Shown here piece after piece: positions 966 through 57,613 of a DNA stretch of 64,000 bases. Origin of the DNA: Escherichia virus TH44. The stretch is from the sequence record MT446415.1; one strand, written 5' to 3'. The notes below the pieces were generated by a model. That model was not told where the DNA came from. It searched no databases and was given only the letters and a program-made list of their open reading frames with translations. Position numbers and translations under genes: made by a program. Numbering within the stretch: the stretch's first letter is position 1; every line of letters begins with the position of its first letter.

Positions 966-2378
966 ATGGCTTATACCGTAGCTATTGCTCCTTTGGCGGC
1001 TACGGCCGTTATTGGAGCAACAACCAATTTCACTGCAACCGGCTCTGGCGCTGCAGCTGAAGGTGTTGAATCATTTGTATGGACCGTTAATGGCGTTCCT
1101 CAATCTTCTGTGACTGCAGCAATGGCTTATGTCGCTGTTGGTCCAGCAGGCAGTAAGACTATTAAAGTTGTTGCAACCACCACTCCAGCAGAAGGTGAAC
1201 CGGAAACTGCTGAGGCTGAGACAACTTTAACTATCCAGAATAAAACAATGCCTGCTATTACATTGACTTTAGACCCTGCCTCTGTTACTAAAGAAGTGGG
1301 ACAATCTCAAGTTGTTACTGCTAACGTGACGGGTGCTCCTTCTGGTGCAACAATCACTTACGTTTGGAAACGTAACACTAGCGTAATCGCAGGTCAAACC
1401 GGTAAAACTATTACCGTAACCGAAGCGGCGGCAGCAAATTATACATTGAACTGTGAAGTTACTGTTTCTGCACCCGATTATAATAATGGTACTGCAACTA
1501 AAGGAGCTGCGGTATCTTTTGTTAAGAAAACTATGACAGGTGTTTCCGTTACTTTAACGCCCGCCTCAATTAGTACAGAGAAAGACTCACCTGCACAGTT
1601 TAAAGCGGATGTAGTCGGCGCTCCGGTCGGCGTAAAGGCAACTTATTCTTGGAAGAAAAATGGTTCTATTATTCCAGGCGAAAGCAGTAATATTCTTGCT
1701 GTTGATACGTCTACAATAGGTTCTTACTCTATTGAAGTTTCGGTACTCCTAACAGGTGCGGATTATAATGATTTAACCGTTACCAAAACAGGAAGTGTAG
1801 CAATTACTAAAAAGACTATGACAGGTGTTTCCGTTACTTTAACGCCGGCTTCTATTACCGTCTCTGAAGGACTCCCAGCTTCTTTTAAAGCTACCGTAGC
1901 CGGCGCGCCTAGTGGTGCTACTTTTGCATATTCTTGGAAGAAAGACGGTTTAGCTGTTGCTGGCACCACGGATACCCTAGCAATCGATACAAGCGCTGAA
2001 GGTTCACAGGTTATTGAAGTTTCTGTTGTGGTTTCGGCGACTAATTACAACCCAGTGACTGTCAAAAAAACTGGTAATGTAACAGTCACCGCTAAAGTCG
2101 CTCCTGAACCAGAGGGCGAACTACCTTACGTTCATCCGCTACCAGTTCGTAATTCAGCTTATATCTGGTGTGGTTGGTGGGTTATGGATGAAATCCAGAA
2201 AATGACTCTTGAAGGCAAAGACTGGAAAACCGATGACCCTGATAGTGATTTCTATCTCCATCGTTATACTCTTCAAAAAATGATTGCCGATTATCCAGAG
2301 GTCGATGTACAAGAATCCCGTAATGGATATATTATCCATCGTTCGGCTCTTGACGCAGGTATAATTTATTTTTACTGA
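966..2378 (+). CDS. hoc: Hoc head outer capsid decoration protein with extra Ig-like domain
   Basis: 470 aa; C-terminus PEPEGELPYVHPLPVRNSAYIWCGWWVMDEIQKMT...YPEVDVQESRNGYIIH matches recalled T4 Hoc capsid-binding domain; repeated Ig-like modules. Confidence 0.9.
   Translation: MAYTVAIAPLAATAVIGATTNFTATGSGAAAEGVESFVWTVNGVPQSSVTAAMAYVAVGPAGSKTIKVVATTTPAEGEPETAEAETTLTIQNKTMPAITLTLDPASVTKEVGQSQVVTANVTGAPSGATITYVWKRNTSVIAGQTGKTITVTEAAAANYTLNCEVTVSAPDYNNGTATKGAAVSFVKKTMTGVSVTLTPASISTEKDSPAQFKADVVGAPVGVKATYSWKKNGSIIPGESSNILAVDTSTIGSYSIEVSVLLTGADYNDLTVTKTGSVAITKKTMTGVSVTLTPASITVSEGLPASFKATVAGAPSGATFAYSWKKDGLAVAGTTDTLAIDTSAEGSQVIEVSVVVSATNYNPVTVKKTGNVTVTAKVAPEPEGELPYVHPLPVRNSAYIWCGWWVMDEIQKMTLEGKDWKTDDPDSDFYLHRYTLQKMIADYPEVDVQESRNGYIIHRSALDAGIIYFY
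1531..1847 (+). repeat. Internal direct repeat in hoc (Ig-domain duplication, about 285 bp period)
   Basis: 32-bp identical segment actatgacaggtgtttccgttactttaacgcc at 1531-1562 and 1816-1847; protein KKTMTGVSVTLTPASI occurs twice. Confidence 0.8.
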
Positions 2379-2427: not shown

Positions 2428-4458
2428 ATGAGTGTAGAAGTAATTTTGGTAACTAAGTACACTATACCTGAACTTATCCAAGCCGTTAATGAAAAACAAA
2501 CGGTTGGATATTTTCCTGCTTGTGGTGTTCTTTATTTTAATAATAGATTTACCCAATTAATGACCTTAGACACAAATGCTACAGAAGTTCCATCAGCACC
2601 TTATACCATAATAGCCGAACAAAACGGTGTTTTATGGGCGGAAGCCGCTTCAGCTTTTGTGGATGCAAATCCGACAGCAGAATGCTTATCACCTGTAGAA
2701 TATATAGATTCGCTATACATGCAAGCTTATGGGGACGCAAGGGCCGCATCCGGTGGCGGTTCGACGGGGCCTAAAGGTGATACCGGTCCAATGGGTCCAA
2801 TGGGTCCTCAAGGTATTCAAGGGCCAATAGGTCCAGAAGGTCCCCAAGGTTTAAAAGGAGAAAAAGGTGATACTGGTCCTCAAGGTCCTCAAGGTCCACA
2901 GGGAGTAAAGGGAGACACAGGAGCAACCGGTTTAACTGGGGCTGAAGGGCCACAAGGACCTATAGGTTTAACGGGCCCTAGTGGAGCCCAGGGTGTTAAA
3001 GGCGATACAGGTCCTCAAGGACCCCAGGGTTTGAAGGGTGAAAAAGGTGATACCGGACCGCAAGGCCCACAAGGAGAACCAGGCACCGGCAATGGCGGTC
3101 TGAAATGGTATACAGAAGATGCTGGTAAAACTTATCCTATTATAGATGTGGACCCAAATTTATCACAAATAGGAATGGGTAATCCAGATGGTGGATACGT
3201 CCAATTAAAATTTATGACCGGAGGCAATAACGCTGGACATATAATGGCTGATGATGGGACCATGACGTTATGGAAAACCCAGCAAAGCACACTCAATCTT
3301 TCGGATAACTCGGCAGCACTGCATAACCATGCCAACGTGGAACTTGCCAATGCTGACATGACGCTTAACATGGATGGGCGTGACTTGACTGTTAGTGATG
3401 TGGATAGTATTCGTCTCCAGCTCAATGCGGACAGAAGCGCTCTGGTGGCGCCGGCGGACGTTGCAAACGTGACAGTATCCACTGAAGGCACTGCACAGGT
3501 CATGGCTAATACTTACATCCAACTGAATGCAGTAAACAACAGGTCTATAATTCAGCTAGACGAATCCGCTATCACCACAAGGTCAGGTCGCTCAAACACT
3601 GAACTCACAGATGCTACATACCGTGCCAGTGCGCCGGACTTAGACGGCCGAATTTCGTTGACTCTGGGTCCGCATGCAAAGTTCCTGGCTACACCTACCA
3701 ATACTGCAATCAATTTTAGTAAAAGTACTGTAACAACCAGAATGCTCATGGATAGTACCGGGATAAACATTGAAACATTAACCGAGGCACCTGTGTTTAT
3801 ACGGAATGTCGATAAGGTGGTTTATACGGCTGATAAAGGTGTGGCTACCATTGGACGGGGTGATTATACACAGGTCGTTGACCAAACTGGGGTAGTAATC
3901 ACTACGGGTGCAGGTAATGTAAGCACTCAAAATGCCACTGGATTTATTAAAGACACTGCCGGCGAGTATCAGTACCGCATCGACAACAAATTGGTATTCT
4001 TCTCTAGTGGGGACATTACAAGAATTAACACAGATGCTTGTGGTGTTGAACTTGATAATGGTTCAGGCATTGCTTATAATAGTGGCACAGGCGAACATAC
4101 TTTTCTTGGCGGTAACGTAGCCCCAGGTGCGGCCAATATAAGTTTAGGTGGAGCTGTTGCTCCGTGGGCTTCAATTTATCTGGATAGTTCTACCCCACGT
4201 GTAATTCAGACCAACACGGCCCACGCGGAAGTCCCAGCTGCTACAATAGCTAAGATGGCTACACTTGTCCCACAAGCTCTGAACACAGCATCCGGTGGCT
4301 TCACAATGGGATATGTTTACGAGGATGTGATTGCAGCTTTAGGCGCCGTCGATGCTGAACTCTACGGGCTTGCATGGATGGAAGGCGGGAAGAAGGTCAT
4401 TAACCCTGTTGCAATACTTGCTATGGAGGCGTTATACGTTCGTAGTAAATTAGTCTAA
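2428..4458 (+). CDS. Collagen-like repeat protein (fibre-like), about 36 G-X-Y triplets plus large C-terminal domain
   Basis: 676 aa ORF with GGAGG RBS; residues about 112-225 are uninterrupted GPQGPQG/GDTGP Gly-X-Y repeats; inserted between hoc and rnlB-side small genes. Confidence 0.8.
   Translation: MSVEVILVTKYTIPELIQAVNEKQTVGYFPACGVLYFNNRFTQLMTLDTNATEVPSAPYTIIAEQNGVLWAEAASAFVDANPTAECLSPVEYIDSLYMQAYGDARAASGGGSTGPKGDTGPMGPMGPQGIQGPIGPEGPQGLKGEKGDTGPQGPQGPQGVKGDTGATGLTGAEGPQGPIGLTGPSGAQGVKGDTGPQGPQGLKGEKGDTGPQGPQGEPGTGNGGLKWYTEDAGKTYPIIDVDPNLSQIGMGNPDGGYVQLKFMTGGNNAGHIMADDGTMTLWKTQQSTLNLSDNSAALHNHANVELANADMTLNMDGRDLTVSDVDSIRLQLNADRSALVAPADVANVTVSTEGTAQVMANTYIQLNAVNNRSIIQLDESAITTRSGRSNTELTDATYRASAPDLDGRISLTLGPHAKFLATPTNTAINFSKSTVTTRMLMDSTGINIETLTEAPVFIRNVDKVVYTADKGVATIGRGDYTQVVDQTGVVITTGAGNVSTQNATGFIKDTAGEYQYRIDNKLVFFSSGDITRINTDACGVELDNGSGIAYNSGTGEHTFLGGNVAPGAANISLGGAVAPWASIYLDSSTPRVIQTNTAHAEVPAATIAKMATLVPQALNTASGGFTMGYVYEDVIAALGAVDAELYGLAWMEGGKKVINPVAILAMEALYVRSKLV
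2761..3095 (+). repeat. Collagen-type triplet (G-X-Y) coding repeat
   Basis: ggtcctcaaggtcc-type 9-bp periodic units encoding GPQ/GDT/GEK triplets. Confidence 0.8.
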
Positions 4459-6147: not shown

Positions 6148-6172
6148 GGGCCGCAAGGCCCTTATTCTTTTT
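6148..6172. terminator. Bidirectional rho-independent terminator between rnlB and gp24 paralog
   Basis: GGGCC-GCAA-GGCCC hairpin flanked by A-run upstream and T-run downstream, between convergent stops. Confidence 0.75.
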
Positions 6173-7445
6173 CCAGTGGTGGAAGTTTAACACCAAGATA
6201 AGAACTCAATTGGCTTTGGTTAGCCATCTTATCCATATCAGCACCGTCAATAATGCGAGCTTCTTTATCGTCTTTAGCAACTGTATAAGGGTTCGCAGTC
6301 AATGCATAACGAGCTAACAGTGCAACCGTAGGCTGTAAGCTTTCAGGGTCAACAATAACCTTGAATTCCCCGACCGAGGTATCACCCTCATCATCAACTT
6401 CGCTAAGACCTTCCGTATAAGGCGCATAATACAAAGATGCGACCGTCTGTCCTTCACCCATATCAGCATTTACACCGACAATAACATAATCACATGGACT
6501 GTTCATATCTGCATAAAGCGGCAAACCGTTCTTCAGAACGCCATAGGCTAATTCATCCTGACCTTCCTTTTTCTCAACCCAGCCAGAAGCTGCTAAAATA
6601 GCTGCACAACGGGAAGAAGCGACTGCATATGTACCAGCAAACGAAGTCTGACGTTGAACTGCAGAGTTCATTTCACACATATAATAATACAGGGTTCGCG
6701 CACGGTCCTGAGCATTATCATATTTCGGGTCAGTAAGATTCAATACACCTTTTTCAGAAACACCTTGCACCTTGAAGCGGGAACTAACAGTAATAAGGGA
6801 TTGTAATACGTCCTTATTAATTTCCTCTGCCATTTGAATGCCGAGAATATTATCAATGAAATCTGTTGCATCGAAACCGTTTGCTTCCAGGTCTTGGGCA
6901 AGCTCAACAGTTAAAGAAGTTTTCAGCTTTCTGGATTTAACTTCGGTCTGCCATTTATCGATACGGAAACCCGCTTCGGCAATTTCAGGATGACCTTTTT
7001 CAAATTTATCAGTGAAAGCTGCATCTGACATCATTCTTATATGACCAGCAGCAATGGCTTCAGAAATAACTTCACCCAAATCAGTTTCGAGAGTCCCGGC
7101 GAATGGTGATGCTTCCAAAACTTTGAACACAACACTTTCAAACTGGAACATATCGCCGACTGCATAAGCTTCGTCTTTGTTTGTAAATTCTGGAATATTC
7201 TTACGCTCGAACATACCAATCTGTCCTGCAAATGTTGCTCCACCGAGATAAGTCATTTTATCATCTGGGTTCAGGACGCGAACACCATACAGCGCAGCAA
7301 CAGGCTGGGTAGTTTTCTGTTCAGCAACGAGTGCTTTAAAAATTCGTTTATTCGTAGCCTGAGTATAAGAAAGCAAATTAGGACGGGCGACCTGGTTGGC
7401 CGCCGTTAATGTTGATTCGTGAATTAGTGCGTTAATCTTTTGCAT
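6162..7445 (-). CDS. Capsid vertex protein gp24 paralog (second copy, more divergent)
   Basis: 427 aa; shares MxKINxL, QPVAALYGV, KSRKLKT, TVELAQDLEANGF, NKDVLQSLITVS, ANPYTVAKDDKEARIID with upstream copy; ATG directly abuts stop of upstream copy. Confidence 0.85.
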   Translation of the reverse strand: MQKINALIHESTLTAANQVARPNLLSYTQATNKRIFKALVAEQKTTQPVAALYGVRVLNPDDKMTYLGGATFAGQIGMFERKNIPEFTNKDEAYAVGDMFQFESVVFKVLEASPFAGTLETDLGEVISEAIAAGHIRMMSDAAFTDKFEKGHPEIAEAGFRIDKWQTEVKSRKLKTSLTVELAQDLEANGFDATDFIDNILGIQMAEEINKDVLQSLITVSSRFKVQGVSEKGVLNLTDPKYDNAQDRARTLYYYMCEMNSAVQRQTSFAGTYAVASSRCAAILAASGWVEKKEGQDELAYGVLKNGLPLYADMNSPCDYVIVGVNADMGEGQTVASLYYAPYTEGLSEVDDEGDTSVGEFKVIVDPESLQPTVALLARYALTANPYTVAKDDKEARIIDGADMDKMANQSQLSSYLGVKLPPLEKE

Positions 7446-8726
7446 TTACGCCTCATAAATGATTGGCGGAAGTTTAACACCGAGCAGATAAGACATATTG
7501 CTCTGACCGGCCATTAAATCCATATTGGTTGCATCGATAATACGAGCTTCTTTATCGTCTTTAGCAACGGTGTACGGGTTAGCTGAAAGCGCATAACGAA
7601 CCATCAAAGAGATAGCTGGCTGCAAACTATCGGGGTCCACAATGACCTTAAATGCGCCTACATGCTCTTCATCGTCTAAGTCCAGGCCTTCGGTATAAGG
7701 AGCATAGAAGATTGAGCCTACGACTTCGTTTCCACCGTAATTTTCTTTAACGCCAACGGTTACATAATCCAATGGACTGTTAACATCACAGAATACAGGG
7801 AGGCCATTAATCAAATAGCCGTACGCTGTTTCAGGAAGCCATTGTTCATCTTCTGGTTTATGTTTCAGCCACCCAGAGCCAGCCAACATAGCAGCAACAC
7901 GGCTAGAGGCAACAACAAAGGTACCGGAATAAGATGTAGTTTTCTGAATCTCGGAGTTCATTTCGCAAACCATTTCATATAATTTACGAGCGCTTTCTGG
8001 TGCAGAATTATATGACAAGTCAATAATGCCATTGTCAGAAACACCAGTTACTTTATAACGCTTGGAAACGGTAATAAGAGACTGAAGAACATCTTTGTTA
8101 ATTTCATCTGCCATAATAGTGGCAAGCAAGTCTTCCAGGAAAGCAGGAGCATTAAACCCATTTGCTTCCATATCCTGAGCAAGCTCAACAGTTAATGCAG
8201 TTTTCAATTTACGTGTTTTAACCGGAGCATTCCATTTGTTAACCTGGAATACAGCATTACTAATCTCAACATCACCGGCTTCAAATTTCTCGGTGTGCGC
8301 CGCATCAGGAACCAAACGAATGGTTAATGCAATAAGACCTTCTTGCAGAACATCGGATAGTACAGTTTCGGTAGTCGATGCAAATGGATTATCAACCAGA
8401 GCTTTATAAACGATATTCTGGAATTTAATGTATTCACCTTTAGCTACGGCTTGAGTTGGGGTTGTAAATTCCGGGATAGTTTCACGGTCTTTAGAACCAA
8501 CTTCACCGCCATAAACGGCACCGGTTTGGAAACTGAATTCATTATCAGGAGTAAGATATTTAACACCGTACAGAGCCGCAACTGGCTGGTTCGTACGTTG
8601 TTCAGCGATAATATCGCGGTAAATCAATTTGGTTGTAGCGCGGGTCAAAGCAACAAGATTCGGGCGGCCCAAGGAGTTGCTGGTAGTGGTAGTTGACTCG
8701 CGCAGTAATTTGTTAATCTTTGCCAT
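7446..8726 (-). CDS. 24: Capsid vertex protein gp24
   Basis: 426 aa; MAKINKLLRESTTT...PNLVALTRATTKLIY closely resembles recalled T4 gp24; HK97-fold relative of gp23. Confidence 0.9.
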   Translation of the reverse strand: MAKINKLLRESTTTTSNSLGRPNLVALTRATTKLIYRDIIAEQRTNQPVAALYGVKYLTPDNEFSFQTGAVYGGEVGSKDRETIPEFTTPTQAVAKGEYIKFQNIVYKALVDNPFASTTETVLSDVLQEGLIALTIRLVPDAAHTEKFEAGDVEISNAVFQVNKWNAPVKTRKLKTALTVELAQDMEANGFNAPAFLEDLLATIMADEINKDVLQSLITVSKRYKVTGVSDNGIIDLSYNSAPESARKLYEMVCEMNSEIQKTTSYSGTFVVASSRVAAMLAGSGWLKHKPEDEQWLPETAYGYLINGLPVFCDVNSPLDYVTVGVKENYGGNEVVGSIFYAPYTEGLDLDDEEHVGAFKVIVDPDSLQPAISLMVRYALSANPYTVAKDDKEARIIDATNMDLMAGQSNMSYLLGVKLPPIIYEA

Positions 8727-10750: not shown

Positions 10751-11569
10751 TTAAGAAATTCGTGATGCTGCGAGAGCAGACAAGTCCGCGAAGGACAGGG
10801 TAGGCTTGGCGCCTTTTTCTTCAACTGCTTCTGAAATGTAATTCAGTGCCGCAGCATCGTCTACATTTTTATTTATAGCGGCTTCGGTGATTGGTTTGTT
10901 GGTGGGTTCTACCTGACCTTTAACCATTTCAACGATAGCGCCAATTTTGGTACCGAATGCATCAGAGTATTCCATGCCTTCTACCAGAGAACCAACTTTT
11001 TCTTTCTGAGATTCAGTCAGGTCTTTAGTTGCTTCAGTCAACGCAACTTCACGTTGGACATAATTGATATAAGCATCACGCTTAGAAACTTCTTCGAACA
11101 GGTTAGCGGTTTCTTCTTTCTGTTCAGCCAGTTCTTCCTGCATTTCTGCAACAACATCAACAGATTCTTCCGGAACAACAACGTTGTGCTCAACGAACAG
11201 TTCTTTCATGCCGGTGAACATGGATTCGAACAGGTCAGCTTTAATGCCACGGTCGACAGCCAGTTTATTTTCAGCAAGCCATTCTTTAGCAACGTGGTCC
11301 AGGAATTTAGCTGCGGATTCTTTCAGTTTTTTCTCTGCTTTTTCGTCGGATTCTTCTTTATTCTTTTCGACTTCTTCTTCAGCTTTTTCAGCGATGGCGT
11401 GAATGTGAGATTCTGCCAGTTTGATGGCGTGTTGCTTGACGGTAGCTTCGAATACAGTGCCGAAGGTAGCTTTCGCTTCCGGGGACAAATTAACTGATTC
11501 GAAAATACTATCGAGAGCAACGGAAGCATCGATATTCTGAGCTTCGGCAATGAGTTGTTCTTTAAGCAT
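10751..11569 (-). CDS. 22: Prohead core scaffold protein gp22
   Basis: 272 aa acidic, helical, Glu/Lys-rich; between gp21 and gp23. Confidence 0.85.
   Translation of the reverse strand: MLKEQLIAEAQNIDASVALDSIFESVNLSPEAKATFGTVFEATVKQHAIKLAESHIHAIAEKAEEEVEKNKEESDEKAEKKLKESAAKFLDHVAKEWLAENKLAVDRGIKADLFESMFTGMKELFVEHNVVVPEESVDVVAEMQEELAEQKEETANLFEEVSKRDAYINYVQREVALTEATKDLTESQKEKVGSLVEGMEYSDAFGTKIGAIVEMVKGQVEPTNKPITEAAINKNVDDAAALNYISEAVEEKGAKPTLSFADLSALAASRIS
10870..10877 (-). promoter_or_regulatory. Candidate late promoter TATAAATA inside gene 22 (for gene 23)
   Basis: Reverse-strand TATAAATA about 140 nt upstream of gp23 ATG. Confidence 0.3.
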
Positions 11570-11598: not shown

Positions 11599-11606
11599 TA
11601 TTTATA
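11599..11606 (-). promoter_or_regulatory. Late promoter TATAAATA for gene 22 (overlaps gene 21 stop)
   Basis: Reverse-strand TATAAATA 30 nt upstream of gp22 ATG. Confidence 0.55.
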
Positions 11607-12240
11607 ACGTCTTTAAAGCCTCTGCGAGAGCCATAAAGGCGTCATCGGCACTGGTATCGGCAACAGCCGTTTGTGATTCTGTAATCTGCTTTGGTTTGAC
11701 CCAAGCGTCCGGAGCACTTGGCCCCCATACTGCGTCCACTCCAACCGTCAATTTAAAACCTTCATTAACGATGTTATAACCTTTAGCTGATTTAGTCAGG
11801 GAACCAAGTCCACGACTAGATACGCCAGGAATCCAACCTGCTCTTATATTCGCAGCAAGTTTATCACCTGGGCCATGGTCGCCTTCGATAATACGCGCGC
11901 GGCCATATACATCATTCCCTTTCCACCACATTTCCTCGATAATAATTGCTGCCTGCATAGGGTCAACGTTTGCACGAGGTGGATGGTTTAATTCTCCAAG
12001 AGACTGCTTGGTTTCAACCTGTTCGGCGATATAGTCCGCAACGGCTTTTTCCAAAATATGTTTAGGATAAAGTCGTTTATTACGGTTAACAACTTCAGCT
12101 TGTAGGAAAATACCTTCAATATAAAGTCCTGGCTTTAAACCGCTGCTGGAACCATCATGAGATTCCAACATCGGTACACCATCTTTAATTTCGCCCGGTT
12201 GGCCCCAGTGTTCGATTAGTAACTCTGGTTTCTGTTCCAT
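11602..12240 (-). CDS. 21: Prohead protease gp21
   Basis: 212 aa, same length as T4 gp21; between gp68 and gp22. Confidence 0.88.
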   Translation of the reverse strand: MEQKPELLIEHWGQPGEIKDGVPMLESHDGSSSGLKPGLYIEGIFLQAEVVNRNKRLYPKHILEKAVADYIAEQVETKQSLGELNHPPRANVDPMQAAIIIEEMWWKGNDVYGRARIIEGDHGPGDKLAANIRAGWIPGVSSRGLGSLTKSAKGYNIVNEGFKLTVGVDAVWGPSAPDAWVKPKQITESQTAVADTSADDAFMALAEALKTL

Positions 12241-41401: not shown

Positions 41402-42091
<690 letters not shown>

Positions 42092-42092
<1 letters not shown>

Positions 42093-42129
42093 TGTACAAA
42101 TGAGTGTAGGTGCAGTATTATGCACCTAC
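42092..42129 (+). promoter_or_regulatory. Early promoter stem-loop cassette (PeSL-like)
   Basis: -35 GTGTAC; 9-bp inverted repeat GTAGGTGCA/TGCACCTAC with -10-like TATTAT in the loop. Confidence 0.5.
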
Positions 42130-42152
42130 GTCAACGAACAAACGGAGTTAAA

Positions 42153-42485
42153 ATGAACATCAAAACTTACAACGAGTTTTTAGCCGAATCCGCCATCAAT
42201 GAGACCAAATCAATTGATGATAGTGAAGGCTCTCTGAAATTTGGTTTATCCAAAAATGCAGATGGTGTTTTCTTTCAGATTGGTAATGAACGTTTTCAAA
42301 CGTCCAAATATTCCAAAGCTGCAGTTGAAGCTGTCCTGAAATCTGGTGGCAAGTGGAAAGGCAAAGAAGGTACTAAAGAAATTGGTATCGCTGTTGACGG
42401 TGGTATGGCTTATTTTAAAATTGGCGATGAACAATTTATTATGTCTGCTCGCGGGCGTAAAGAACTGGCAAAACTTTATAAATAA
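42153..42485 (+). CDS. Internal-protein-like small protein with capsid-targeting-type N-terminus
   Basis: Trimmed start MNIKTYNEFLAES (GGAG RBS); N-terminus resembles T4 IP leader MKTYQEFIAE. Confidence 0.7.
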   Translation: MNIKTYNEFLAESAINETKSIDDSEGSLKFGLSKNADGVFFQIGNERFQTSKYSKAAVEAVLKSGGKWKGKEGTKEIGIAVDGGMAYFKIGDEQFIMSARGRKELAKLYK

Positions 42486-42493
42486 GGTTTCTT

Positions 42494-42766
42494 ATGAAAA
42501 CTTTCAATGAATTTTTCAACGAGTCACAACTGAATGAAGAAGTAAAAATTAGTAAAGCAGTCAAATCTATGATTGACAATATCAATCACCTGTATAGCAT
42601 TGACTTGACTGACCATATAACAATTGGTAACAAACGCAACTTTTTCGCGTTTGACATTTCAGAACTTGACCAGAACCAAATTAATAACATTGAGCGTTTT
42701 GCCAATGACAAGGGTCTCCGTCATGAGACGGCTGGTTATAAAAAATATGCAATTTATCTAAAATAG
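42494..42766 (+). CDS. Internal-protein-like small protein
   Basis: 90 aa; N-terminus MKTFNEFFNES. Confidence 0.7.
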   Translation: MKTFNEFFNESQLNEEVKISKAVKSMIDNINHLYSIDLTDHITIGNKRNFFAFDISELDQNQINNIERFANDKGLRHETAGYKKYAIYLK

Positions 42767-42774
42767 GATTTCAA

Positions 42775-43074
42775 ATGCAAACGCTCCATGAATTTTTAGT
42801 AGAAAACAATTACCTGGCAGAAGCAAAAACCTGGCCTCTGGGTCTTCAGAAGAAAAACACTTTCAAATGGGTTGACTTCAAAGGTAAAGGTGACGAAGAA
42901 GATTTTATGCAACTGCGTAAAAATGGTTATACCTTCCTTGACTCCAACTATAACAAAATTACCTCTTTTAGTCAGAAGTCAAGCATTGCCTTCATTGAAA
43001 CTGGTAAGAACTCTCCTAAAGATATTTCTGACGACTTCGCCGCTTATGGTGTAATTCGTGGCGGTAAGATGTAA
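42775..43074 (+). CDS. Internal-protein-like small protein
   Basis: 99 aa; N-terminus MQTLHEFLVEN. Confidence 0.65.
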   Translation: MQTLHEFLVENNYLAEAKTWPLGLQKKNTFKWVDFKGKGDEEDFMQLRKNGYTFLDSNYNKITSFSQKSSIAFIETGKNSPKDISDDFAAYGVIRGGKM

Positions 43075-43083
43075 ATAACACAA

Positions 43084-43105
43084 GGGGATAATTATCCCCT
43101 TTTTA
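43084..43105 (+). terminator. Palindrome GGGGATAATTATCCCC + T-run
   Basis: 16-bp perfect palindrome followed by TTTTTA; cassette boundary. Confidence 0.5.
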
Positions 43106-43120
43106 TGGCTTGGAGACAAC

Positions 43121-43363
43121 ATGAAAACTTATCAAACATTTATAACAGAATCTTCTCATGGTATGGAAGTTAAACTTGGTCAAGCCCTTGCTGAAGCTGA
43201 GCGTTTGTTTGCACGCATCAAAGAACTTGCTGATTCCGTAGATGCATCATCTTTTAAAGGTGACCAAGGCAAAGTTAAAGCTCTCCTCGCTCTTTGTTCA
43301 GACGCGGGTGAAATTGCTAAGAATGGCACCAAGATGAAAAAACGTCTGGAAGACTTAAAATAA
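43121..43363 (+). CDS. Internal-protein-like small protein
   Basis: 80 aa; N-terminus MKTYQTFITES. Confidence 0.7.
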   Translation: MKTYQTFITESSHGMEVKLGQALAEAERLFARIKELADSVDASSFKGDQGKVKALLALCSDAGEIAKNGTKMKKRLEDLK

Positions 43364-43401
43364 GTATACGCGATGGGATAACTGCATTATAATTATCCCA
43401 T
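43364..43401 (+). promoter_or_regulatory. Early promoter stem-loop cassette (PeSL-like)
   Basis: -35 GTATAC; inverted repeat ATGGGATAA/TTATCCCAT flanking TATAAT. Confidence 0.5.
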
Positions 43402-43418
43402 CAACTACTGGAGACAAC

Positions 43419-43697
43419 ATGAAAACTTATCAAGAATTTATTAACGAATCAATTAGTCACCCGGATATGCTGGAAGACCTGAAAGGATATCTGATGGTTA
43501 AGGCCAAACCGGTTGATGGTGGCGCATTTGAGTTGTTTCTTGTTAAAGGCGAAAACGGTCCTGATAACAAGAAAGTTTCAGCAATGATGTTGACTAAAGG
43601 TTACAAAGTCAGTTCTTCCTGGAATGCTCCATTCACTTACGCGGTAAGCCCTCGTGAACTGAAAAAAGTTAAAGCTGGGCAATATACAAAAATTTAG
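43419..43697 (+). CDS. Internal-protein-like small protein
   Basis: 92 aa; N-terminus MKTYQEFINES. Confidence 0.7.
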   Translation: MKTYQEFINESISHPDMLEDLKGYLMVKAKPVDGGAFELFLVKGENGPDNKKVSAMMLTKGYKVSSSWNAPFTYAVSPRELKKVKAGQYTKI

Positions 43698-43734
43698 TGT
43701 ACGTGATGGGATAACTGTAGTATGATTATCCCAT
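43697..43734 (+). promoter_or_regulatory. Early promoter stem-loop cassette (PeSL-like)
   Basis: -35 GTGTAC; inverted repeat ATGGGATAA/TTATCCCAT flanking TATGAT. Confidence 0.5.
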
Positions 43735-43751
43735 CAACTATTGGAGACCAC

Positions 43752-44006
43752 ATGAAAACTTATCAAGAATTTATTACTGAATCTGCAAATACAAAAGTTG
43801 AGTTTGCTTATGTTGGTTCGCCGCGTGGCAGTTTTTCCAATGAGGAATTCCGTCGTTCACTGGACAATTTCATGCAGTTAAGTGCTGAAGTATCGCATGA
43901 TGGTCGTTATGACATCGTTACTATTAGCGGTTCTGAAGACCTTATCAAAAAGTGGCACAAGCAGAAAGATGTTGAGATGCGTTACTATCGTATCCCTAAA
44001 AAATAA
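43752..44006 (+). CDS. Internal-protein-like small protein
   Basis: Trimmed start MKTYQEFITES (GGAG RBS). Confidence 0.7.
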   Translation: MKTYQEFITESANTKVEFAYVGSPRGSFSNEEFRRSLDNFMQLSAEVSHDGRYDIVTISGSEDLIKKWHKQKDVEMRYYRIPKK

Positions 44007-45917: not shown

Positions 45918-46150
45918 GAAACCGGGTCGCTACCGGTAAGTCGTCGGACTGATGTTCCCTGGAGTATAGTTCCTCCCACGGTTTTACTGTGTTCTGGTTC
46001 TTTACTATCACAGCTGAAACGGCGCACCCTTTTAACGGAGTTTTTCCAGAGCGGACGGTGCGTCCGGTAGTACGAGAAATCAGAGCGGGTGGTGCATCCG
46101 GTACTATGGAATATAAATATTAACAACAACCCTAATAATGGAAAAACAAA

Positions 46151-46534
46151 ATGCTTACATATGCAGAATTTTTAAATCGCAATACCATCACTGAATCCGT
46201 ACTGACTGAAGCTGGCAAATTTTCTTTAGTGGCTCCAGAAAAAGCCGGTGTTTCAATTGGTGACCGTGTTATGTTCAAGAAACCAGTTAATGGCGTTTCT
46301 TGGGGTATCGTAACTGGGTTTGGCATCAAAGCTAAAGACGTTAAAAACGCCGCAGCACCTGGTGCTAAACTGGCTGGTTCCAAAGTTTCAACTTATATGG
46401 TTCGCCCTAAACAGTCTCCAGGTAATGGTGCTGCTGACTGGGTTGGTGCTCCAATCGAAATCGCTCGTGATAAATTCTTGAACATCACTGACCGTGCCAA
46501 CGAACGCGCTGCAATGGCATTCGCTCGCGGATAA
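46151..46534 (+). CDS. Hypothetical protein with IP-like N-terminus (MLTYAEFL)
   Basis: 127 aa; Gly/Ala-rich. Confidence 0.6.
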   Translation: MLTYAEFLNRNTITESVLTEAGKFSLVAPEKAGVSIGDRVMFKKPVNGVSWGIVTGFGIKAKDVKNAAAPGAKLAGSKVSTYMVRPKQSPGNGAADWVGAPIEIARDKFLNITDRANERAAMAFARG

Positions 46535-47238: not shown

Positions 47239-47268
47239 GTGTACATCCGAATTGACCCGGCGCATAAT
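47239..47268 (+). promoter_or_regulatory. Early promoter cassette (-35 GTGTAC, -10 CATAAT)
   Basis: 18-nt spacer; conserved leader cataatgattccatactgagttac. Confidence 0.5.
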
Positions 47269-47319
47269 GATTCCATACTGAGTTACACACTGAATCAAAC
47301 AAAACTTTGGAGAAATAAA

Positions 47320-47745
47320 ATGAACTTTCTGACCCTGACCTCTGCATTCTCTGTTACCCGCATCACCAACAAAATGGTTGCTGACGAAGTATGTGAAATC
47401 TGCATTCGTGAAGATGCACTTATCCATCTGACTTCAACCCAGATTGTTGCCATTGCCAAGTCCCTTAATTCTGAACTGAAGGTAAACACCAAACAGTCAA
47501 AAGAATCTATCATTGAATTAATCCAAGCTGAAATGATTGAATTCCCAATTGAAGAAGTTAAAGAAGAAAAAATCCAGTCCAAATCTGGTAATGCTCGTGA
47601 CATTTGCTTCCAGGCATTTGCAGAAATTGATATGAATGATAATGCAGCTCGTCGCGCTCTGATTGATGTTCTGGTTACCACCCATGATATCAAAAAGACT
47701 GTTGTTCAGTCATATGCTTCCAACTTCCGCAAAGCTCAAAAATAA
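47320..47745 (+). CDS. Hypothetical protein with C-terminal AARRALID...VQSYASNFRK domain
   Basis: Trimmed start MNFLTLTS; C-terminal 45 aa shared with ORF 48198. Confidence 0.6.
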   Translation: MNFLTLTSAFSVTRITNKMVADEVCEICIREDALIHLTSTQIVAIAKSLNSELKVNTKQSKESIIELIQAEMIEFPIEEVKEEKIQSKSGNARDICFQAFAEIDMNDNAARRALIDVLVTTHDIKKTVVQSYASNFRKAQK

Positions 47746-48197: not shown

Positions 48198-48641
48198 ATG
48201 AAAACTTCAAAACTGGTTAAGTATGTTAAACTGGCATTAAACAACTCTTCTGAAGCTGAAGCACAATCCGCAGCACGTATGTTCTTCAAACGTCTGACAG
48301 CTGAAGGTATTTCATTTAACCCGGCAGTATTTGGTATCACTCGTGGCGAAGCTGCTAAACTGGCAACTCTGGCAGGTAAAATTTTTAAAGGTCTGAATGA
48401 TGGACAGGTTAAACCAGAAGTTAAACCTACTCCTAAAGCTGAACCAAAAGCTGAACGTAAGGCACCTAAACGCTCCGGTATGAGCAACAAAGATTTATGC
48501 TATGATATGTTCAAAACTGTTAATATGTCTAATGGTGCCGCTCGCAGGGCTGTTATTGATATGATTGTGCGTGAGTTTGGATTCAACAAAGCATCAGTTC
48601 AGTCTTATGCTTCCAACTTCCGCAAAGAATTTGAAATTTAA
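48198..48641 (+). CDS. Hypothetical protein with C-terminal AARRAVID...VQSYASNFRK domain
   Basis: 147 aa; paralogous C-terminus to ORF 47320. Confidence 0.6.
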   Translation: MKTSKLVKYVKLALNNSSEAEAQSAARMFFKRLTAEGISFNPAVFGITRGEAAKLATLAGKIFKGLNDGQVKPEVKPTPKAEPKAERKAPKRSGMSNKDLCYDMFKTVNMSNGAARRAVIDMIVREFGFNKASVQSYASNFRKEFEI

Positions 48642-50626: not shown

Positions 50627-50966
50627 TCTTGCATCACATGTTTATCAATTGGCTGAATATGATATTGGTGCCAGTTTATTATTAGGGATACCCACCGCCA
50701 TGCTTGGTGGTTTGGTTGGTCTGGTAATGACCACGGTTATGGCTGCAATCGAGGGAGTGATGCCCATTGAGATGGGTTTCTTTATGATAATCGCTCCGGC
50801 TGTTGTGTCTTATTTTATCCCTGTTGTGTATGATATCTGCCACACAAACGCCGTGAATGCTCCTAGTCGGAAGAGATATGCTTCAGCAATGGCTGAGTAT
50901 AATAAGTTCCTAGACAAAACAAAACGTAATGACCTTGAAACCTTTATTAAGGAATGTAAATCATGA
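50613..50966 (+). CDS. Membrane protein with C-terminal ETFIKECK motif
   Basis: Trimmed start MERPSLASHVYQ (AAGGAGG RBS); hydrophobic helices. Confidence 0.6.
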   Translation: MERPSLASHVYQLAEYDIGASLLLGIPTAMLGGLVGLVMTTVMAAIEGVMPIEMGFFMIIAPAVVSYFIPVVYDICHTNAVNAPSRKRYASAMAEYNKFLDKTKRNDLETFIKECKS

Positions 50967-51253
50967 ATAAAATTGAAATTGCTATCCCCAAGTATTATGA
51001 TGAGAAATCTGCAGAAAAAGCTATCTATTCTCTTCTAAATAAGACCTCTGAAATTGAAAAACACTGTGAAGAAATCGCAGATGAATATGGTATCGAATTC
51101 AGCACTGGCGATTACGGCACCGGCCGTACATATCACCCAGTCGGTTATGAATGTTCCGAATGGTTCGCTCACCATATTGAAAACAACGGCGGGCAAGTTG
51201 AAAACGGCATTGTTACTGTTGGTGCCTGGGTTTCCTCTTCTGAGGTGTGCTAA
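50963..51253 (+). CDS. Small protein, member 1 of W-x-S-S-x-x-C C-terminal family
   Basis: 96 aa ending GAWVSSSEVC. Confidence 0.6.
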   Translation: MNKIEIAIPKYYDEKSAEKAIYSLLNKTSEIEKHCEEIADEYGIEFSTGDYGTGRTYHPVGYECSEWFAHHIENNGGQVENGIVTVGAWVSSSEVC

Positions 51254-51254
51254 T

Positions 51255-51536
51255 ATGATGAATGATTACCGTAAAAATAAAGAACTGGCTAACGCAGTAA
51301 ATGATATCCATAAAGCTATTCGTCGTGCCGAGGAAATTGCAAACAAATATGAGACTCATTTTAATATATACCCTGCTCGCGGTATGGGCGGTGACTATTA
51401 TTCTCCTGGCGCCCTGAAAGCTGACCTTGCTCATTGGGAAGAACATGGTCATCCTGAATGGGCTATTGTTAATACTCATGACTATACAACTGACCTGGAA
51501 AAAGGCGGTTGGGTGTCCTCCTCTTCTGAATGTTAA
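51255..51536 (+). CDS. Small protein, member 2 of W-x-S-S-x-x-C C-terminal family
   Basis: Trimmed start MMNDYRK; 93 aa ending GGWVSSSSEC. Confidence 0.6.
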   Translation: MMNDYRKNKELANAVNDIHKAIRRAEEIANKYETHFNIYPARGMGGDYYSPGALKADLAHWEEHGHPEWAIVNTHDYTTDLEKGGWVSSSSEC

Positions 51537-51544
51537 GGAATGTT

Positions 51545-51742
51545 ATGTCTCGTGAATTAGATTGTGCAATCCGTACTGCTGCGGCAGCTATTGAAAACGT
51601 TATCCAGATTTGTAAAGAAGAGCGTGAAGAAGCTGATATCTATATTGACGGTCAGCGTAATCTGGAACGTCATATCACGCTTTATAATGGTTGTATTACA
51701 ATTAGTGGTACCTCTTGGGTGTCCTCCTCTTACGAATGCTAA
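51545..51742 (+). CDS. Small protein, member 3 of W-x-S-S-x-x-C C-terminal family
   Basis: Trimmed start MSRELDCAIR; 65 aa ending TSWVSSSYEC. Confidence 0.6.
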   Translation: MSRELDCAIRTAAAAIENVIQICKEEREEADIYIDGQRNLERHITLYNGCITISGTSWVSSSYEC

Positions 51743-51751
51743 GGAAATAAA

Positions 51752-51970
51752 ATGACTACTAAAACTGTTAAAGAAATTGAAGACCAAATCCGTGCACTAA
51801 TCTGTGAAGGTGAACAACTGGCCGATAAAACCGGCGAACACTTCTGTAGCGGTGGCGAAGAATATATTCCAGCTTCTAGTCCGGAATATAACGATTACGA
51901 ATGGGTTCGTGATGAATATTGTATTCCAGAAGGTGAAGGTTTCTGGTTTAACTCCTCTATGTCTTGCTAA
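51752..51970 (+). CDS. Small protein, member 4 of the family
   Basis: 72 aa ending GFWFNSSMSC. Confidence 0.6.
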   Translation: MTTKTVKEIEDQIRALICEGEQLADKTGEHFCSGGEEYIPASSPEYNDYEWVRDEYCIPEGEGFWFNSSMSC

Positions 51971-51979
51971 GGTGATAAA

Positions 51980-52213
51980 ATGACTACTGCTGTTGAACAT
52001 GCTGAATTAGAAAAAGCTGCCCTTGAACTGGCCGCGCTGTATAAGAAAGTAAAAGATATGGCTTTTGCTCAAGATTTCGGTGTCGAGCTTGATGATTATG
52101 ACGGCGAAGTTCGTCTTGAAGATTGGTTGAATAGCTCTTGTTACGGTGAAGAAGCTGGTCGTACCTTCGTTGCTCGTGCCGATGGTAAAATCTGGTATCC
52201 GAGTAGCTGCTAA
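51980..52213 (+). CDS. Small protein, member 5 of the family
   Basis: 77 aa ending KIWYPSSC. Confidence 0.6.
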   Translation: MTTAVEHAELEKAALELAALYKKVKDMAFAQDFGVELDDYDGEVRLEDWLNSSCYGEEAGRTFVARADGKIWYPSSC

Positions 52214-55994: not shown

Positions 55995-56264
55995 ATGAAA
56001 ACGTATCAAGAATTTTTGGCTGAATCTGTATTAAATGAATCAGATGAAAGTCGCATGGCATTTTTAGCTAAGAAAGAAGGCTTTGAGTTTACTTCTATTA
56101 AAAAAGTTAATGGAACTTCATTTAAAGTTGGTGATTGGACCTTTGGTAACAAAGGAAATGGCCAGTGGCAAATTGTAGATAAATCTGGCAAAGAAGTGGA
56201 TTATTTGTTTAATCAGAAATTGGGTGATATCGCTAAACTTATGGGTCAATACTCTAAGAAATGA
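55995..56264 (+). CDS. Internal-protein-like small protein
   Basis: 89 aa; N-terminus MKTYQEFLAES. Confidence 0.7.
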   Translation: MKTYQEFLAESVLNESDESRMAFLAKKEGFEFTSIKKVNGTSFKVGDWTFGNKGNGQWQIVDKSGKEVDYLFNQKLGDIAKLMGQYSKK

Positions 56265-56784: not shown

Positions 56785-57048
56785 ATGAAAACTTATCAAG
56801 AATTTATTACTGAATCTGCCAAAGCTCCTGCTGGTTCTTTTAAAGTTCGCGCCTTCGCGGGTGATGCTGAAGACTTTGGCACCATGAAGCGTAACGGTTA
56901 TTCTTTCTTTGGCGGAGATGGTAAAGAAATTGTAACCTATGCAAAACGTCGCGAAATCGCATTTGTGGTTGCTGGTAAGAAAGTTGATGTTGACGATATT
57001 GAATGGGACTTTGAGACCTTTGGTATTGTTTCTGGCGGTAAAGCATAA
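56785..57048 (+). CDS. Internal-protein-like small protein
   Basis: Trimmed start MKTYQEFITESAKAPAGS; TATAAT promoter upstream. Confidence 0.7.
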   Translation: MKTYQEFITESAKAPAGSFKVRAFAGDAEDFGTMKRNGYSFFGGDGKEIVTYAKRREIAFVVAGKKVDVDDIEWDFETFGIVSGGKA

Positions 57049-57050
57049 CT

Positions 57051-57087
57051 GTTTACTTTATGATGGGATAGTGTATAATTATCCCAT
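57051..57087 (+). promoter_or_regulatory. Early promoter stem-loop cassette (PeSL-like)
   Basis: -35 GTTTAC, 17-nt spacer, TATAAT in loop of ATGGGATA/TATCCCAT. Confidence 0.55.
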
Positions 57088-57107
57088 CAACTACTGAGGA
57101 GAATAAA

Positions 57108-57305
57108 ATGTTAACTTATAAAGAATTTATGAAAGAAGTTAAAAAACTTAAAAAGACTTCTGGTGATGTTAAAATTGAAATCCATGGCCAAACCGTAAAT
57201 GCGGTAGCGGATGGTCAGGCATTAGTTCTTTATAGTGATAAAGACCAAGAATTTCGCGAAGCACAAAAGAAAAAATTTACCGTGTGGCTCAAAAAAGCTG
57301 TTTAA
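57108..57305 (+). CDS. Small basic protein with IP-like N-terminus (MLTYKEFMKE)
   Basis: 65 aa; GGAG RBS. Confidence 0.6.
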   Translation: MLTYKEFMKEVKKLKKTSGDVKIEIHGQTVNAVADGQALVLYSDKDQEFREAQKKKFTVWLKKAV

Positions 57306-57313
57306 GGACCAAT

Positions 57314-57613
57314 ATGAAAACTTATCAAGAATTTATCACAGAAGCCAAAGCCCCTAAAGCATTCCAAATTGGAGTCCAAGGCAATTTAGACCAACAATAT
57401 GTTGATGCTATTGTAGCAAGCCTCGGTAAACAGGGTGTACAAGTGGATTTGGTTGATTTTACTAAAGGCAATACTTTTAATATTGTCACATCTAAAGGTT
57501 CTTTAGCTAAAGTTAAAAAGGCCTTTGGTGTAGCACAAGCATATGAAATCGACCACTCTGAATTGGAAAATAAAGGTCGCCAGAACACAATTAAAGGTTC
57601 TGGTTCTTTCTAA
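57314..57613 (+). CDS. Internal-protein-like small protein
   Basis: Trimmed start MKTYQEFITEAKAPKAF; 99 aa. Confidence 0.7.
   Translation: MKTYQEFITEAKAPKAFQIGVQGNLDQQYVDAIVASLGKQGVQVDLVDFTKGNTFNIVTSKGSLAKVKKAFGVAQAYEIDHSELENKGRQNTIKGSGSF

Follow-up and report, generated by a model that had tools for sequence, protein, structure and literature searches.

Eleven genes with a T4-type capsid targeting leader form a probable internal head protein repertoire in a Gaprivervirus

Eleven plus-strand genes of Escherichia virus TH44, a Gaprivervirus of the VR7/SP18 group, begin with a leader which, judged by sequence, is the capsid targeting sequence (CTS) of the T4 internal proteins (IPs) IPI, IPII and IPIII. 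In the window (the whole stretch of DNA that was analyzed, 64,000 nt of record MT446415.1) every one of these genes carries the CTS, the genes occupy the two classical IP loci and a third slot, and T4-like gp21 and gp22 are encoded as well. From this we infer packaging, cleavage and anti-defence activity of the eleven proteins, and we put at roughly 75% the probability that they are T4-type internal head proteins which are packaged, processed by gp21, injected and suited to anti-defence, and whose genes turn over by cassettes.

Six of the genes are consecutive (42153-44006) at the T4 ipI locus, with intergenic gaps of 8, 8, 46, 55 and 54 nt. In the following lists slashes mark candidate gp21 cleavage sites.
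42153-42485, plus strand: IP-type gene, 110 aa, VR7ORF156c family, phrog_3966; leader MN-IKTYNEFLAE/SAINE/
42494-42766, plus strand: ip9 homolog, 90 aa, phrog_7673 (internal head protein); leader MKTFNEFFNE
42775-43074, plus strand: IP gene, 99 aa, VR7ORF154c family, paralog of 56785; leader MQTLHEFLVE/
43121-43363, plus strand: ip5 homolog, 80 aa, phrog_3499 (internal head protein); leader MKTYQTFITE/
43419-43697, plus strand: IP-type gene, 92 aa, VR7ORF153c family, phrog_15565, in a 333-bp cassette; leader MKTYQEFINE/
43752-44006, plus strand: ip6-like gene, 84 aa, phrog_8111 (internal virion protein); leader MKTYQEFITE/
The gene directly upstream of the array lies outside the IP system.
41637-42092, plus strand: 57B/Acb1 homolog, anti-CBASS 2H phosphoesterase
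As a side observation, the adjoining position of acb1, a proven anti-CBASS gene, was counted in favour of an anti-defence role.

Four genes are situated around denV, which by synteny is the T4 ipII/ipIII locus, and one occupies the third slot.
55995-56264, plus strand: IP gene between e and denV, 89 aa, phrog_8765 (internal virion protein); leader MKTYQEFLAE/SVLNE/
56785-57048, plus strand: IP gene, 87 aa, VR7ORF127c family, paralog of 42775; leader MKTYQEFITE/
57108-57305, plus strand: candidate IP, 65 aa ORFan with its own promoter stem-loop and ribosome-binding site; leader MLTYKEFMKE
57314-57613, plus strand: ip7 homolog, 99 aa, phrog_2667 (internal head protein); leader MKTYQEFITE/
46151-46534, plus strand: IP-type gene in the third slot, after the tRNAs, 127 aa; long IPI-style leader MLTYAEFLNRNTITE/SVLTE/
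Ten of the eleven genes thus lie within conserved IP loci (57B to trna.4; around e, denV and vs.8), with 46151 in the third slot. The arrangement differs from that of T4 in that three of the four genes at the second locus are on the opposite side of denV, and in the third slot itself. The family of 55995 adjoins the lysozyme gene e in several genera, and 57108 was matched in one other phage record only.

A six-frame scan of the 64-kb window with the motif M[KLQ]T[YFL]x[ET]F[ILMF]xE yielded nine ORF starts, all on the plus strand (42494, 42775, 43121, 43419, 43752, 55995, 56785, 57108 and 57314). A looser form of the motif recovered the same nine, compared with a mean of 0.05 and a maximum of 1 match in 100 shuffles, and an origin of the leader similarity by chance or low complexity was rejected on these figures. 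Together with two variants (42153 and 46151) there are eleven CTS-bearing ORFs, and a further, still looser scan across all 64 kb returned these eleven and no others. They are the same genes for which a sequence-only reading of this DNA had claimed MKTYQEFI.E-type leaders, namely the six consecutive ones and those at 46151, 55995, 56785, 57108 and 57314. Relatives share the start coordinates of that reading, and GGAG-type ribosome-binding sites stand ahead of them; the longer starts proposed by the ORF tool (42120, 43722, 56746 and 57284) are artefacts of in-frame upstream start codons. Regarding the two variants, the homologs of 42153 begin MKTYxEFLxE, and in the window copy the ATG at their start has become ATC, the actual start lying two codons upstream; in the leader of 46151 position 10 is not Glu.

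The equation of the leader with the T4 targeting sequence, likewise claimed beforehand, was borne out by N-terminal comparison: T4 IPII and IPIII start with MKTYQEFIAE, and five window genes start with the nearly identical MKTYQEFI[TN]E. Experiments have shown that leader residues 4 and 7 direct targeting and that residues 8 and 10, at L/I-x-E, govern processing (PMC9026906). In all eleven leaders position 4 is aromatic or hydrophobic (Y, F or L) and position 7 is Phe (offset by two residues in 42153), and a canonical gp21 site (L/I-x-E) closes the leader in eight of them. Two genes have a longer leader as in T4 IPI, which is cut after residue 19, mature IPI* beginning at residue 20 (PDB 2JUB): 42494, whose first canonical site is completed at residue 15, and 46151, with sites at 15 and 20. 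Within the first 25 residues of 57108 (FMKE) a canonical L/I-x-E is absent; Met at position 8 recurs among other natural leaders. The expected partners of the leader are encoded on the other strand.
10751-11569, minus strand: gp22 scaffolding core protein, expected docking partner of the leader, 73% identical to T4 gp22
11602-12240, minus strand: gp21 prohead protease, expected to remove the leader, 87% identical to T4 gp21
Sites for gp21 are conserved in gp23 (FLTE/AEIGG) and gp24 (LLRE/S) of the window, and IPs co-purify with gp22 (PMC9026906).

By analogy with T4, the leader would dock each protein on the prohead scaffolding core, gp21 would cut after the Glu of L/I-x-E to release a small, mostly basic mature protein, and tens to hundreds of copies would remain in the head with the DNA and be injected together with it. 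Because IPs arrive before any phage gene is expressed, they would be suited to blocking host nucleases that attack the incoming DNA. Being the first to enter the cell, they would decide the survival of the injected DNA and help to set host range, and this role bears on the choice and engineering of T4-like therapeutic phages.

The leader is also conserved as DNA, with a mean pairwise identity of 76% over its 30 nt vs 31% across the following 60 nt, and with 82% of its third-codon positions identical between paralogs. The shared 5' sequence could therefore be kept as DNA or RNA, serving as a recombination or translation-initiation module in front of unrelated, unpackaged accessory genes; a crossover in a relative that falls in the leader DNA and a stem-loop common to the non-IP genes denV and trna.4 homolog (see below) would agree with this. 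Such an origin appears extremely improbable, because the amino acids of the leader are kept via differing codons (ACT/ACG/ACA, TAT/TAC/TTC/CTC, ATT/ATA/ATC/TTA/TTG) and their pattern is present in distant environmental phages too, because the ten-residue peptide alone directs foreign proteins into T4 heads (PMC3012670; PMC9026906), and because denV and trna.4 have the stem-loop but not the leader.

Cassette turnover, as part of the interpretation as internal head proteins, is suggested by promoter stem-loops of the PeSL type and by a direct repeat.
42093-42152, plus strand: PeSL-type promoter stem-loop before the first array gene (TGTACA, 17 nt, TATTAT; -18.3 kcal/mol)
57049-57107, plus strand: PeSL-type promoter stem-loop upstream of 57108 (TTTACT, 16 nt, TATAAT; -20.4 kcal/mol, z -4.7)
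43357-43450, plus strand: copy 1 of a 94-nt direct repeat, a PeSL-type cassette boundary (sigma70-like -35, stem-loop with TATAAT, ribosome-binding site, leader)
43690-43783, plus strand: copy 2 of the repeat, 88% identical to copy 1 and 333 nt downstream of it
PeSL elements (sigma70-like -35/-10 with 16-17 nt spacing and a stable stem-loop, in spacers of hyperplastic regions) were found upstream of 42153, 43419, 43752, 44064, 56320 and 57108, with folding energies of -12.6 to -20.4 kcal/mol and z-scores of -2.1 to -5.0. A stem-loop specific to IP genes was rejected, as it precedes denV and the trna.4 homolog as well. The closest relatives, EAWsc9 and ECML-359, are without exactly the 333-bp cassette of 43419 between the 94-nt repeats. 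Up to the end of the leader their junction corresponds to copy 1 (3 mismatches in 89 nt vs 10 to copy 2), and past the leader to copy 2 (7 mismatches in 63 nt vs 48 to copy 1); this hybrid junction maps to the leader DNA.

With the PeSL cassettes of T4-like phages (Arbiol 2010; Comeau 2014, PMC4122927) the window shares the GT(G/T)TAC-type -35, the 16-17 nt spacing and the TATAAT within a stable stem-loop, as well as the location at indel boundaries in hyperplastic regions. Unlike the known cases, the recombining repeat of the window spans the ribosome-binding site and reaches the leader codons, and exchange therefore gives in-frame fusions of leader and cargo. A PeSL-type early-promoter stem-loop, itself conserved and with conserved leader DNA behind it, borders most of the genes, and recombination between these stem-loop/leader repeats would add, delete or swap mature domains. 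Late promoters are located ahead of 42494 (TATAAATA at 42477-42484) and ahead of 46151 (at 46112).

The sequence-only reading had counted about ten genes with unrelated mature domains. Its number was close, eleven having been found, but unrelatedness holds for most of the domains and not for all: 42775 is clearly paralogous to 56785 (38% identity, E 1e-12), and 42153 and 55995 align past the leader (profile comparison, probability 92%). An apparent grouping of 42775, 56785 and 57314 in PHROG 2667 was discarded after profile comparison, according to which 57314 shares the leader only. PHROG families labelled internal head or virion protein match eight of the eleven genes, and none of the eleven proteins had a match above threshold in Pfam or NCBIfam. 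For the 42775/56785 family the AlphaFold model (pLDDT 56.7) was too poor for a structure search. Regarding 42153, a Whirly/PUR-like (beta4-alpha)x2 fold is predicted for the mature domain, its model consisting of two tandem beta-beta-beta-beta-alpha modules of this nucleic-acid-binding fold. Compared with T4 IPI, IPII and IPIII, the window genes share the leader, the two genomic loci, the size range, the basic character and the protease and scaffold partners; they differ in number (eleven vs three) and in their mature domains, none of which is similar to those of T4 in an all-against-all BLASTP comparison (best E 0.078).

The mature domains have a pI of at least 8.8 in nine of eleven cases, the other two being near neutral (pI 6.2 and 6.8). 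T4 IPs are basic proteins that bind DNA at low salt, with some 300 copies of each in a head, and IPIII mutants show slower head assembly and polyheads (PMC9026906). The window proteins might thus be packaged but mainly structural, as basic DNA-associated core parts for prohead assembly, charge neutralisation or DNA organisation, with a diversity that reflects weak constraint and not an arms race. The Whirly/PUR fold of the 42153 model is typical of single-stranded nucleic acid binders, and ip4-10 are without anti-GmrSD activity (see below), both of which fit such a role. We nevertheless consider it unlikely, since a specific anti-restriction activity is known for each of Ip1, Ip2 and Ip3, two window members are near neutral, the T4 triple IP mutant is viable, and presence/absence polymorphism between phages that are 95% identical would be left unexplained. 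The dispensability of T4 IPs on laboratory hosts and the help that IPIII gives to head assembly (PMC9026906) were counted against the main interpretation.

Still less probable are injected host-takeover effectors that alter transcription, metabolism or the envelope. Their model would be the ADP-ribosyltransferase Alt, a packaged and injected enzyme that modifies RNA polymerase, and on environmental T4-like contigs a cytidylyltransferase-like enzyme does carry the leader as a fusion (Pfam 29.3 bits; phrog_395 E 2e-83). The predicted processed proteins of the window measure only 55-117 residues and carry no enzyme signature in Pfam or NCBIfam, and strain-level polymorphism better fits host-specific targets than core host machinery. 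Environmental T4-like contigs also encode the same leader fused to a Pfam SAM-lyase-family domain (70.7 bits); a profile of these proteins reached only E 0.47 against the solved SAM lyase Svi3-3, so that the assignment derives from the Pfam match. These fusions were counted in favour of an anti-defence role; taken at sequence level, they suggest that the CTS may be, in a wider case, a general delivery tag for varied anti-defence cargo.

To our knowledge, the recognition of glucosyl-hmC by GmrSD is the sole known reason for IPs. Ip1, Ip2 and Ip3 of T4 each inhibit one distinct GmrSD type IV enzyme, and ip4-10 showed no reproducible inhibition of 15 GmrSD groups (Silas et al. 2025, PMC12373910); these latter families cover three window genes (ip5, ip7 and ip9). 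The earlier statement that IPI* is injected and inhibits GmrSD agrees with the literature. The genome region concerned falls beyond the window; VR7 is without gene 42, beta-gt and alpha-gt at the syntenic positions but retains dCTPase, and no known modification enzymes are reported for Gaprivervirus (PMC8056088), which may make the recognised kind of IP target irrelevant here. A 2026 paper on glycosylated 5-hydroxycytosine has a coverage that leaves Gaprivervirus outside. The DNA of Gaprivervirus may carry an unrecognised modification, and its IPs probably act on targets other than the GmrSD enzymes studied to date. For the window proteins, targets outside the GmrSD class are conceivable, and nucleic-acid binding is a possibility for some of them. 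Because a glucosyl-hmC pathway is apparently missing and the ip5, ip7 and ip9 families are inactive on the tested GmrSD, the expanded repertoire could tentatively, at odds somewhat against, be seen as injected inhibitors of other first-line defences (classical restriction-modification, nucleases that sense an unknown modification, other sensors of incoming DNA), possibly including nucleic-acid binders such as the Whirly-like 42153.

The same logic of head-loaded anti-restriction proteins delivered with the DNA is described for the Dar system of phage P1 (DarA, DarB, Hdf and others; PMC12810830 and PMC9024508). Dar differs in that its proteins are unrelated and much larger, that they follow a packaging hierarchy instead of bearing a ten-residue cleavable tag, and that they act against type I restriction. 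The proposal of a diversified injected anti-defence repertoire, also made by the sequence-only reading, is supported as an interpretation, with activity of the window proteins presumed; it matches the published view (Rao and Black 2010, PMC3012670; PMC12373910) and is thus not new. A literature search for virion proteomics, cleavage or phenotype reports on these proteins or on VR7-group phages returned none.

Neither the arrays nor their polymorphism nor the idea of an anti-defence role is new, all three being present in the literature and in GenBank annotation; polymorphic IP loci of the VR7/SP18/JS98/RB69/T2/T6 type are credited to Repoila et al. 1994 in later papers. Relatives that are 95-100% identical annotate several of the genes as ip5, ip6, ip7, ip9, ip10 or 'internal head protein'. 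Direct homologs of Ip4-Ip10 and 'putative internal head protein' genes (VR7, SP18, JS98, RB69, T2, T6) occur in the window, 42494 being ip9, 43121 ip5, 43752 ip6-like and 57314 ip7, and VR7 ORFs 156c, 154c, 153c and 127c correspond to 42153, 42775, 43419 and 56785, respectively. The combination is the window's own, with 55995, 57108 and both 43121 and 43419 present and ip10 absent. CTS genes number 3 in T4 (as claimed beforehand), 5 in JS98, about 8 in VR7, 10 in TH41 and 11 in the window, as counted by regex scans of fetched loci, which replaced a 42-nt blastn leader query that undercounts (at most 5 places per record). The Gaprivervirus sets (8-11 genes) are the largest among the genomes compared, and VR7, TH41 and the window differ from one another in IP gene content. 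Rather than being peculiar to the window, the expansion characterises the genus and is already annotated in VR7.

What is of further use is the list of eleven candidates, four of which (42153, 43419, 46151 and 57108) are without an IP label among the annotated relatives examined. Of these, 46151 is confined to Gaprivervirus and annotated 'hypothetical' in every case. A k-mer-based protein search returned zero relatives of it and HMMER was needed; in an exhaustive HMMER search the remote homologs of its mature domain were found to carry CTS-like leaders too. In JS98 the slot of 46151 is filled by orf135, which has a canonical leader and starts with MKTYNEFLNESVLNEAG.

The phage belongs to Gaprivervirus (VR7/SP18 group), a genus of T4-like myoviruses; the G+C content is 41% over 64 kb. 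A six-frame scan of the window found nine + strand ORF starts fitting M[KLQ]T[YFL]x[ET]F[ILMF]xE and no match on the − strand. A looser pattern returned the same nine starts and gave a mean of 0.05 matches in shuffled sequence, and a further-relaxed scan of the whole window added just two variants, 42153 and 46151 (numbers are gene starts). The eleven leader-bearing genes proposed from the sequence alone were thus recovered, at the following positions:

42153-44006 (+): locus 1, six consecutive genes between 57B and trna.4/trna.3 homologs; the T4 counterpart is the single ipI
46151 (+): third slot, two tRNA genes before it and an amidase-like ORF after it
55995, 56785, 57108 and 57314 (+): locus 2, gene order e, 55995, denV, 56785, 57108, 57314, vs.8 homolog

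The T4 order at locus 2 is e, ipIII, ipII, denV, vs.8, whereas the window has three internal head protein (IP) genes beyond denV. The JS98 counterpart in the 46151 slot is orf135, with the N-terminus MKTYNEFLNESVLNEAG. Longer ORFs listed for four of the leader genes were rejected, as they begin at upstream in-frame start codons; one spurious ATG arose by a TATAAT-to-TATGAT change absent from relatives. The 57B homolog (41637-42092, +) lies directly upstream of locus 1 and shows both H-x-T/S motifs (FHSTI, PHITL); T4 57B is the anti-CBASS nuclease Acb1, so that a proven anti-defence gene adjoins the IP array.

For packaging, the first ten residues of T4 IPIII suffice (work of the Black laboratory, reviewed in PMC9026906); residues 4 and 7 serve targeting, residues 8 and 10 processing, and gp21 cleaves after L/I-x-E (PMC9026906). 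All eleven window genes encode Y, F or L at position 4 and F at position 7, and L/I-x-E ends at the canonical position in eight. The first canonical site lies further downstream in 42494 (residue 15) and 46151 (residues 15 and 20), which resembles T4 IPI, with its leader MKTFKEF…STITE and a solved mature form (PDB 2JUB) from residue 20. No canonical site is present in 57108 (FMKE); its Met at position 8 also occurs in natural leaders, namely an ip5 variant (MKTYQTFMTE), the 172-kb viral genome L039 (MKTYQEFMAE) and a large environmental family. The family of 42153 usually starts MKTYxEFLxE. At the ancestral start of the window copy (42153-42161) ATG has become ATC, so translation must begin two codons upstream (MN-IKTY…), displacing the targeting leader by two residues. 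The cognate machinery is encoded (gp21 and gp22, 87% and 73% identical to the T4 proteins), and gp21 sites are conserved in gp23 (FLTE|AEIGG) and gp24 (LLRE|S). The leader is therefore of the T4 capsid-targeting type, as had been claimed, and we infer that the eleven proteins are probably packaged and cleaved, the M-x-E of 57108 being a possible site.

No likeness to T4 IPI, IPII or IPIII was detected in any of the eleven mature domains. The description of these domains as unrelated holds for most of them and fails for two pairs: 42775 and 56785, the only clear paralogs after leader removal (E 1e-12), and 42153 and 55995, whose alignment extends past the leader (92% probability in profile comparison). 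Membership of 57314 in the 42775 family was rejected, the leader alone being in common in the profile comparison. Eight of the eleven matched PHROG families that bear the label internal head protein or internal virion protein, and all families are small and limited to T4-like phages. Gene 46151 was found in 15 records from Gaprivervirus, 99-100% identical and always annotated 'hypothetical'. An exhaustive HMMER search with its mature domain returned two remote homologs, whose leaders (MYTFKEFLVE…LITE and MKSFKEFMLSE) resemble the capsid targeting sequence and thereby independently support 46151 as an IP-type gene. Just one other phage record carries 57108. Four members (42153, 43419, 46151 and 57108) have no IP label in the annotated relatives examined.

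Leader-bearing ORFs at these loci number 3 in T4, 5 in JS98, about 8 in VR7, 10 in TH41 and 11 in the window, which bears out the earlier estimate of three against about ten. IP expansion is a genus trait. The first three locus-1 genes are tightly coupled, with 8-nt gaps and one exact late promoter at 42477; a second late promoter lies upstream of 46151. The remaining junctions have a GT(G/T)TAC-type −35 element, 16-17 nt and TATAAT within a stable stem-loop, the same architecture as in T4 ipI. Because denV and the trna.4 homolog, which are not IP genes, also carry the stem-loop, it is the general promoter-early stem-loop element of T4-like hyperplastic regions.

The records most similar to the window are EAWsc9, TH41, UPEC01 and ECML-359 (96-98% identity, 94-95% of the locus-1 query covered). 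Gene 43419 is flanked by two 94-nt copies, 88% identical to each other, of stem-loop, ribosome-binding site and leader, and EAWsc9 and ECML-359 lack exactly the 333-bp unit holding it. Through the leader their junction follows copy 1 (3 mismatches in 89 nt, versus 10 to copy 2), and past it copy 2 (7 mismatches in 63 nt, versus 48 to copy 1), which places the crossover at leader codons 9-11. This exchange is of the kind already described as shuffling of the T-even IP locus (Repoila et al. 1994, as cited in PMC4122927).

T4 IPs are basic, present at about 300 copies each per head and DNA-binding at low salt; they are dispensable on laboratory hosts, and IPIII also aids head assembly (PMC9026906). 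IPI* inhibits the CT596 GmrSD enzyme (PMC3012670), and Ip2 and Ip3 each inhibit one different GmrSD; both IP loci have been proposed as a hotspot of GmrSD inhibitors, and ip4-10 gave no reproducible inhibition against 15 GmrSD groups (Silas et al. 2025, PMC12373910). Homologs of the tested families ip5, ip7 and ip9 are present in the window. Our analysis supports the sequence-only reading of a repertoire of injected anti-defence effectors, which is the established view and not new; since close relatives are already annotated with internal head proteins, the finding counts as already known.

In VR7 (14000-40000), neither gene 42 nor β-gt was found between uvsX and imm, nor α-gt at its syntenic position between genes 47 and 55; the gp56 dCTPase is retained. 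Gaprivervirus phages keep DenA, DenB and Alc and are without known enzymes for non-canonical bases (PMC8056088). Enzymes specific for glucosyl-hmC may have no substrate in Gaprivervirus DNA. The presence of DenA, DenB and Alc in a genus with no known base-modification enzyme speaks for a DNA modification that is still uncharacterised. Four points are worth carrying forward: the occurrence of so large an IP set where the hmC pathway appears to be missing, the four unlabelled members, the mapped leader crossover and the environmental enzyme fusions.

A scan of viral contigs found the canonical leader in at least 80 loci, and many of the matches listed were on T4-like contigs of environmental origin in which two to five leader genes stand in a row. 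One recurrent environmental family (MKTYQEFMQE or MKTYQEFMLE, about 160-180 aa) has at least 13 complete copies and scores above threshold against PF23780, the SAM-lyase family of Pfam (70.7 bits, cutoff 28). Selected contig features are:

L017:60-548 (-) and L045:5044-5550: leader plus SAM-lyase-family protein (PF23780); likewise on L047, L052, L054, L055, L063, L068, L070, L077, L079, L087 and L088
L081:357-1520 (-): cytidylyltransferase-like fusion, 388 aa, start MKTYQEFIIE, linker of about 110 residues
L067:2888-4717 (-), L025:1027-2346 (+), L050:1427-2518 (+) and L075:5816-6973 (+): large repeat proteins, start MKTYQEFISEAKKCWPGYKKKG

The SAM-lyase family is that of the anti-restriction SAMase of phage T3. 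Leader and PF23780 match together suggest an anti-restriction enzyme that is packaged in the head and injected. L045 encodes gp45, gp46, gp47, gp55, UvsW and CobS/CobT, a T4-like context. A profile of the leader-plus-SAM-lyase proteins reached the solved SAM lyase Svi3-3 only weakly (E 0.47). In the L081 protein (Pfam PF01467, 29.3 bits; phrog_395, E 2e-83; motif GRFNPPTIGH) an enzyme would follow a capsid-targeting leader. If confirmed, such fusions would mean that the tag delivers recognisable enzymes. The MKTYQEFISEAKKCWPGYKKKG proteins (283-610 aa, very basic, internally repeated) matched nothing in Pfam or PHROG; many environmental contigs encode such proteins, and their genes adjoin smaller genes with MKTF(K/R)EFLEE leaders.

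The window + strand runs in reverse of the T4 map direction. T4 late-region genes 24 to 5 are on the − strand, among them the head-core genes for gp20, gp67/68, gp21, gp22 and gp23 and two gp24 paralogs. The adjacent paralogs of this capsid vertex protein, at 6162-7445 (-) and 7446-8726 (-), are 56% and 70% identical to T4 gp24, and both retain the N-terminal gp21 site (LIHE|S and LLRE|S). The Hoc position of T4 is filled at 966-2378 (+) by a 470-aa repeat protein in which the motif …SWKK… recurs. The protein that follows, at 2428-4458 (+), is 676 aa long and contains a long tract of collagen-like G-x-y repeats. The ORFs at 47239-47745 (+) and 48198-48641 (+) have a C-terminal segment in common (…NxAARRAxIDxxV…VQSYASNFRK) and look like diverged paralogs. 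Five successive small ORFs (about 70-96 aa) at 50963-52213 (+), annotated in relatives only as hypothetical proteins, form a second family of tandem paralogs whose defining feature is the conserved C-terminal motif W-[VFY]-x-S-S-(x-x)-C (…AWVSSSEVC, …GWVSSSSEC, …SWVSSSYEC, …FWFNSSMSC and …IWYPSSC).
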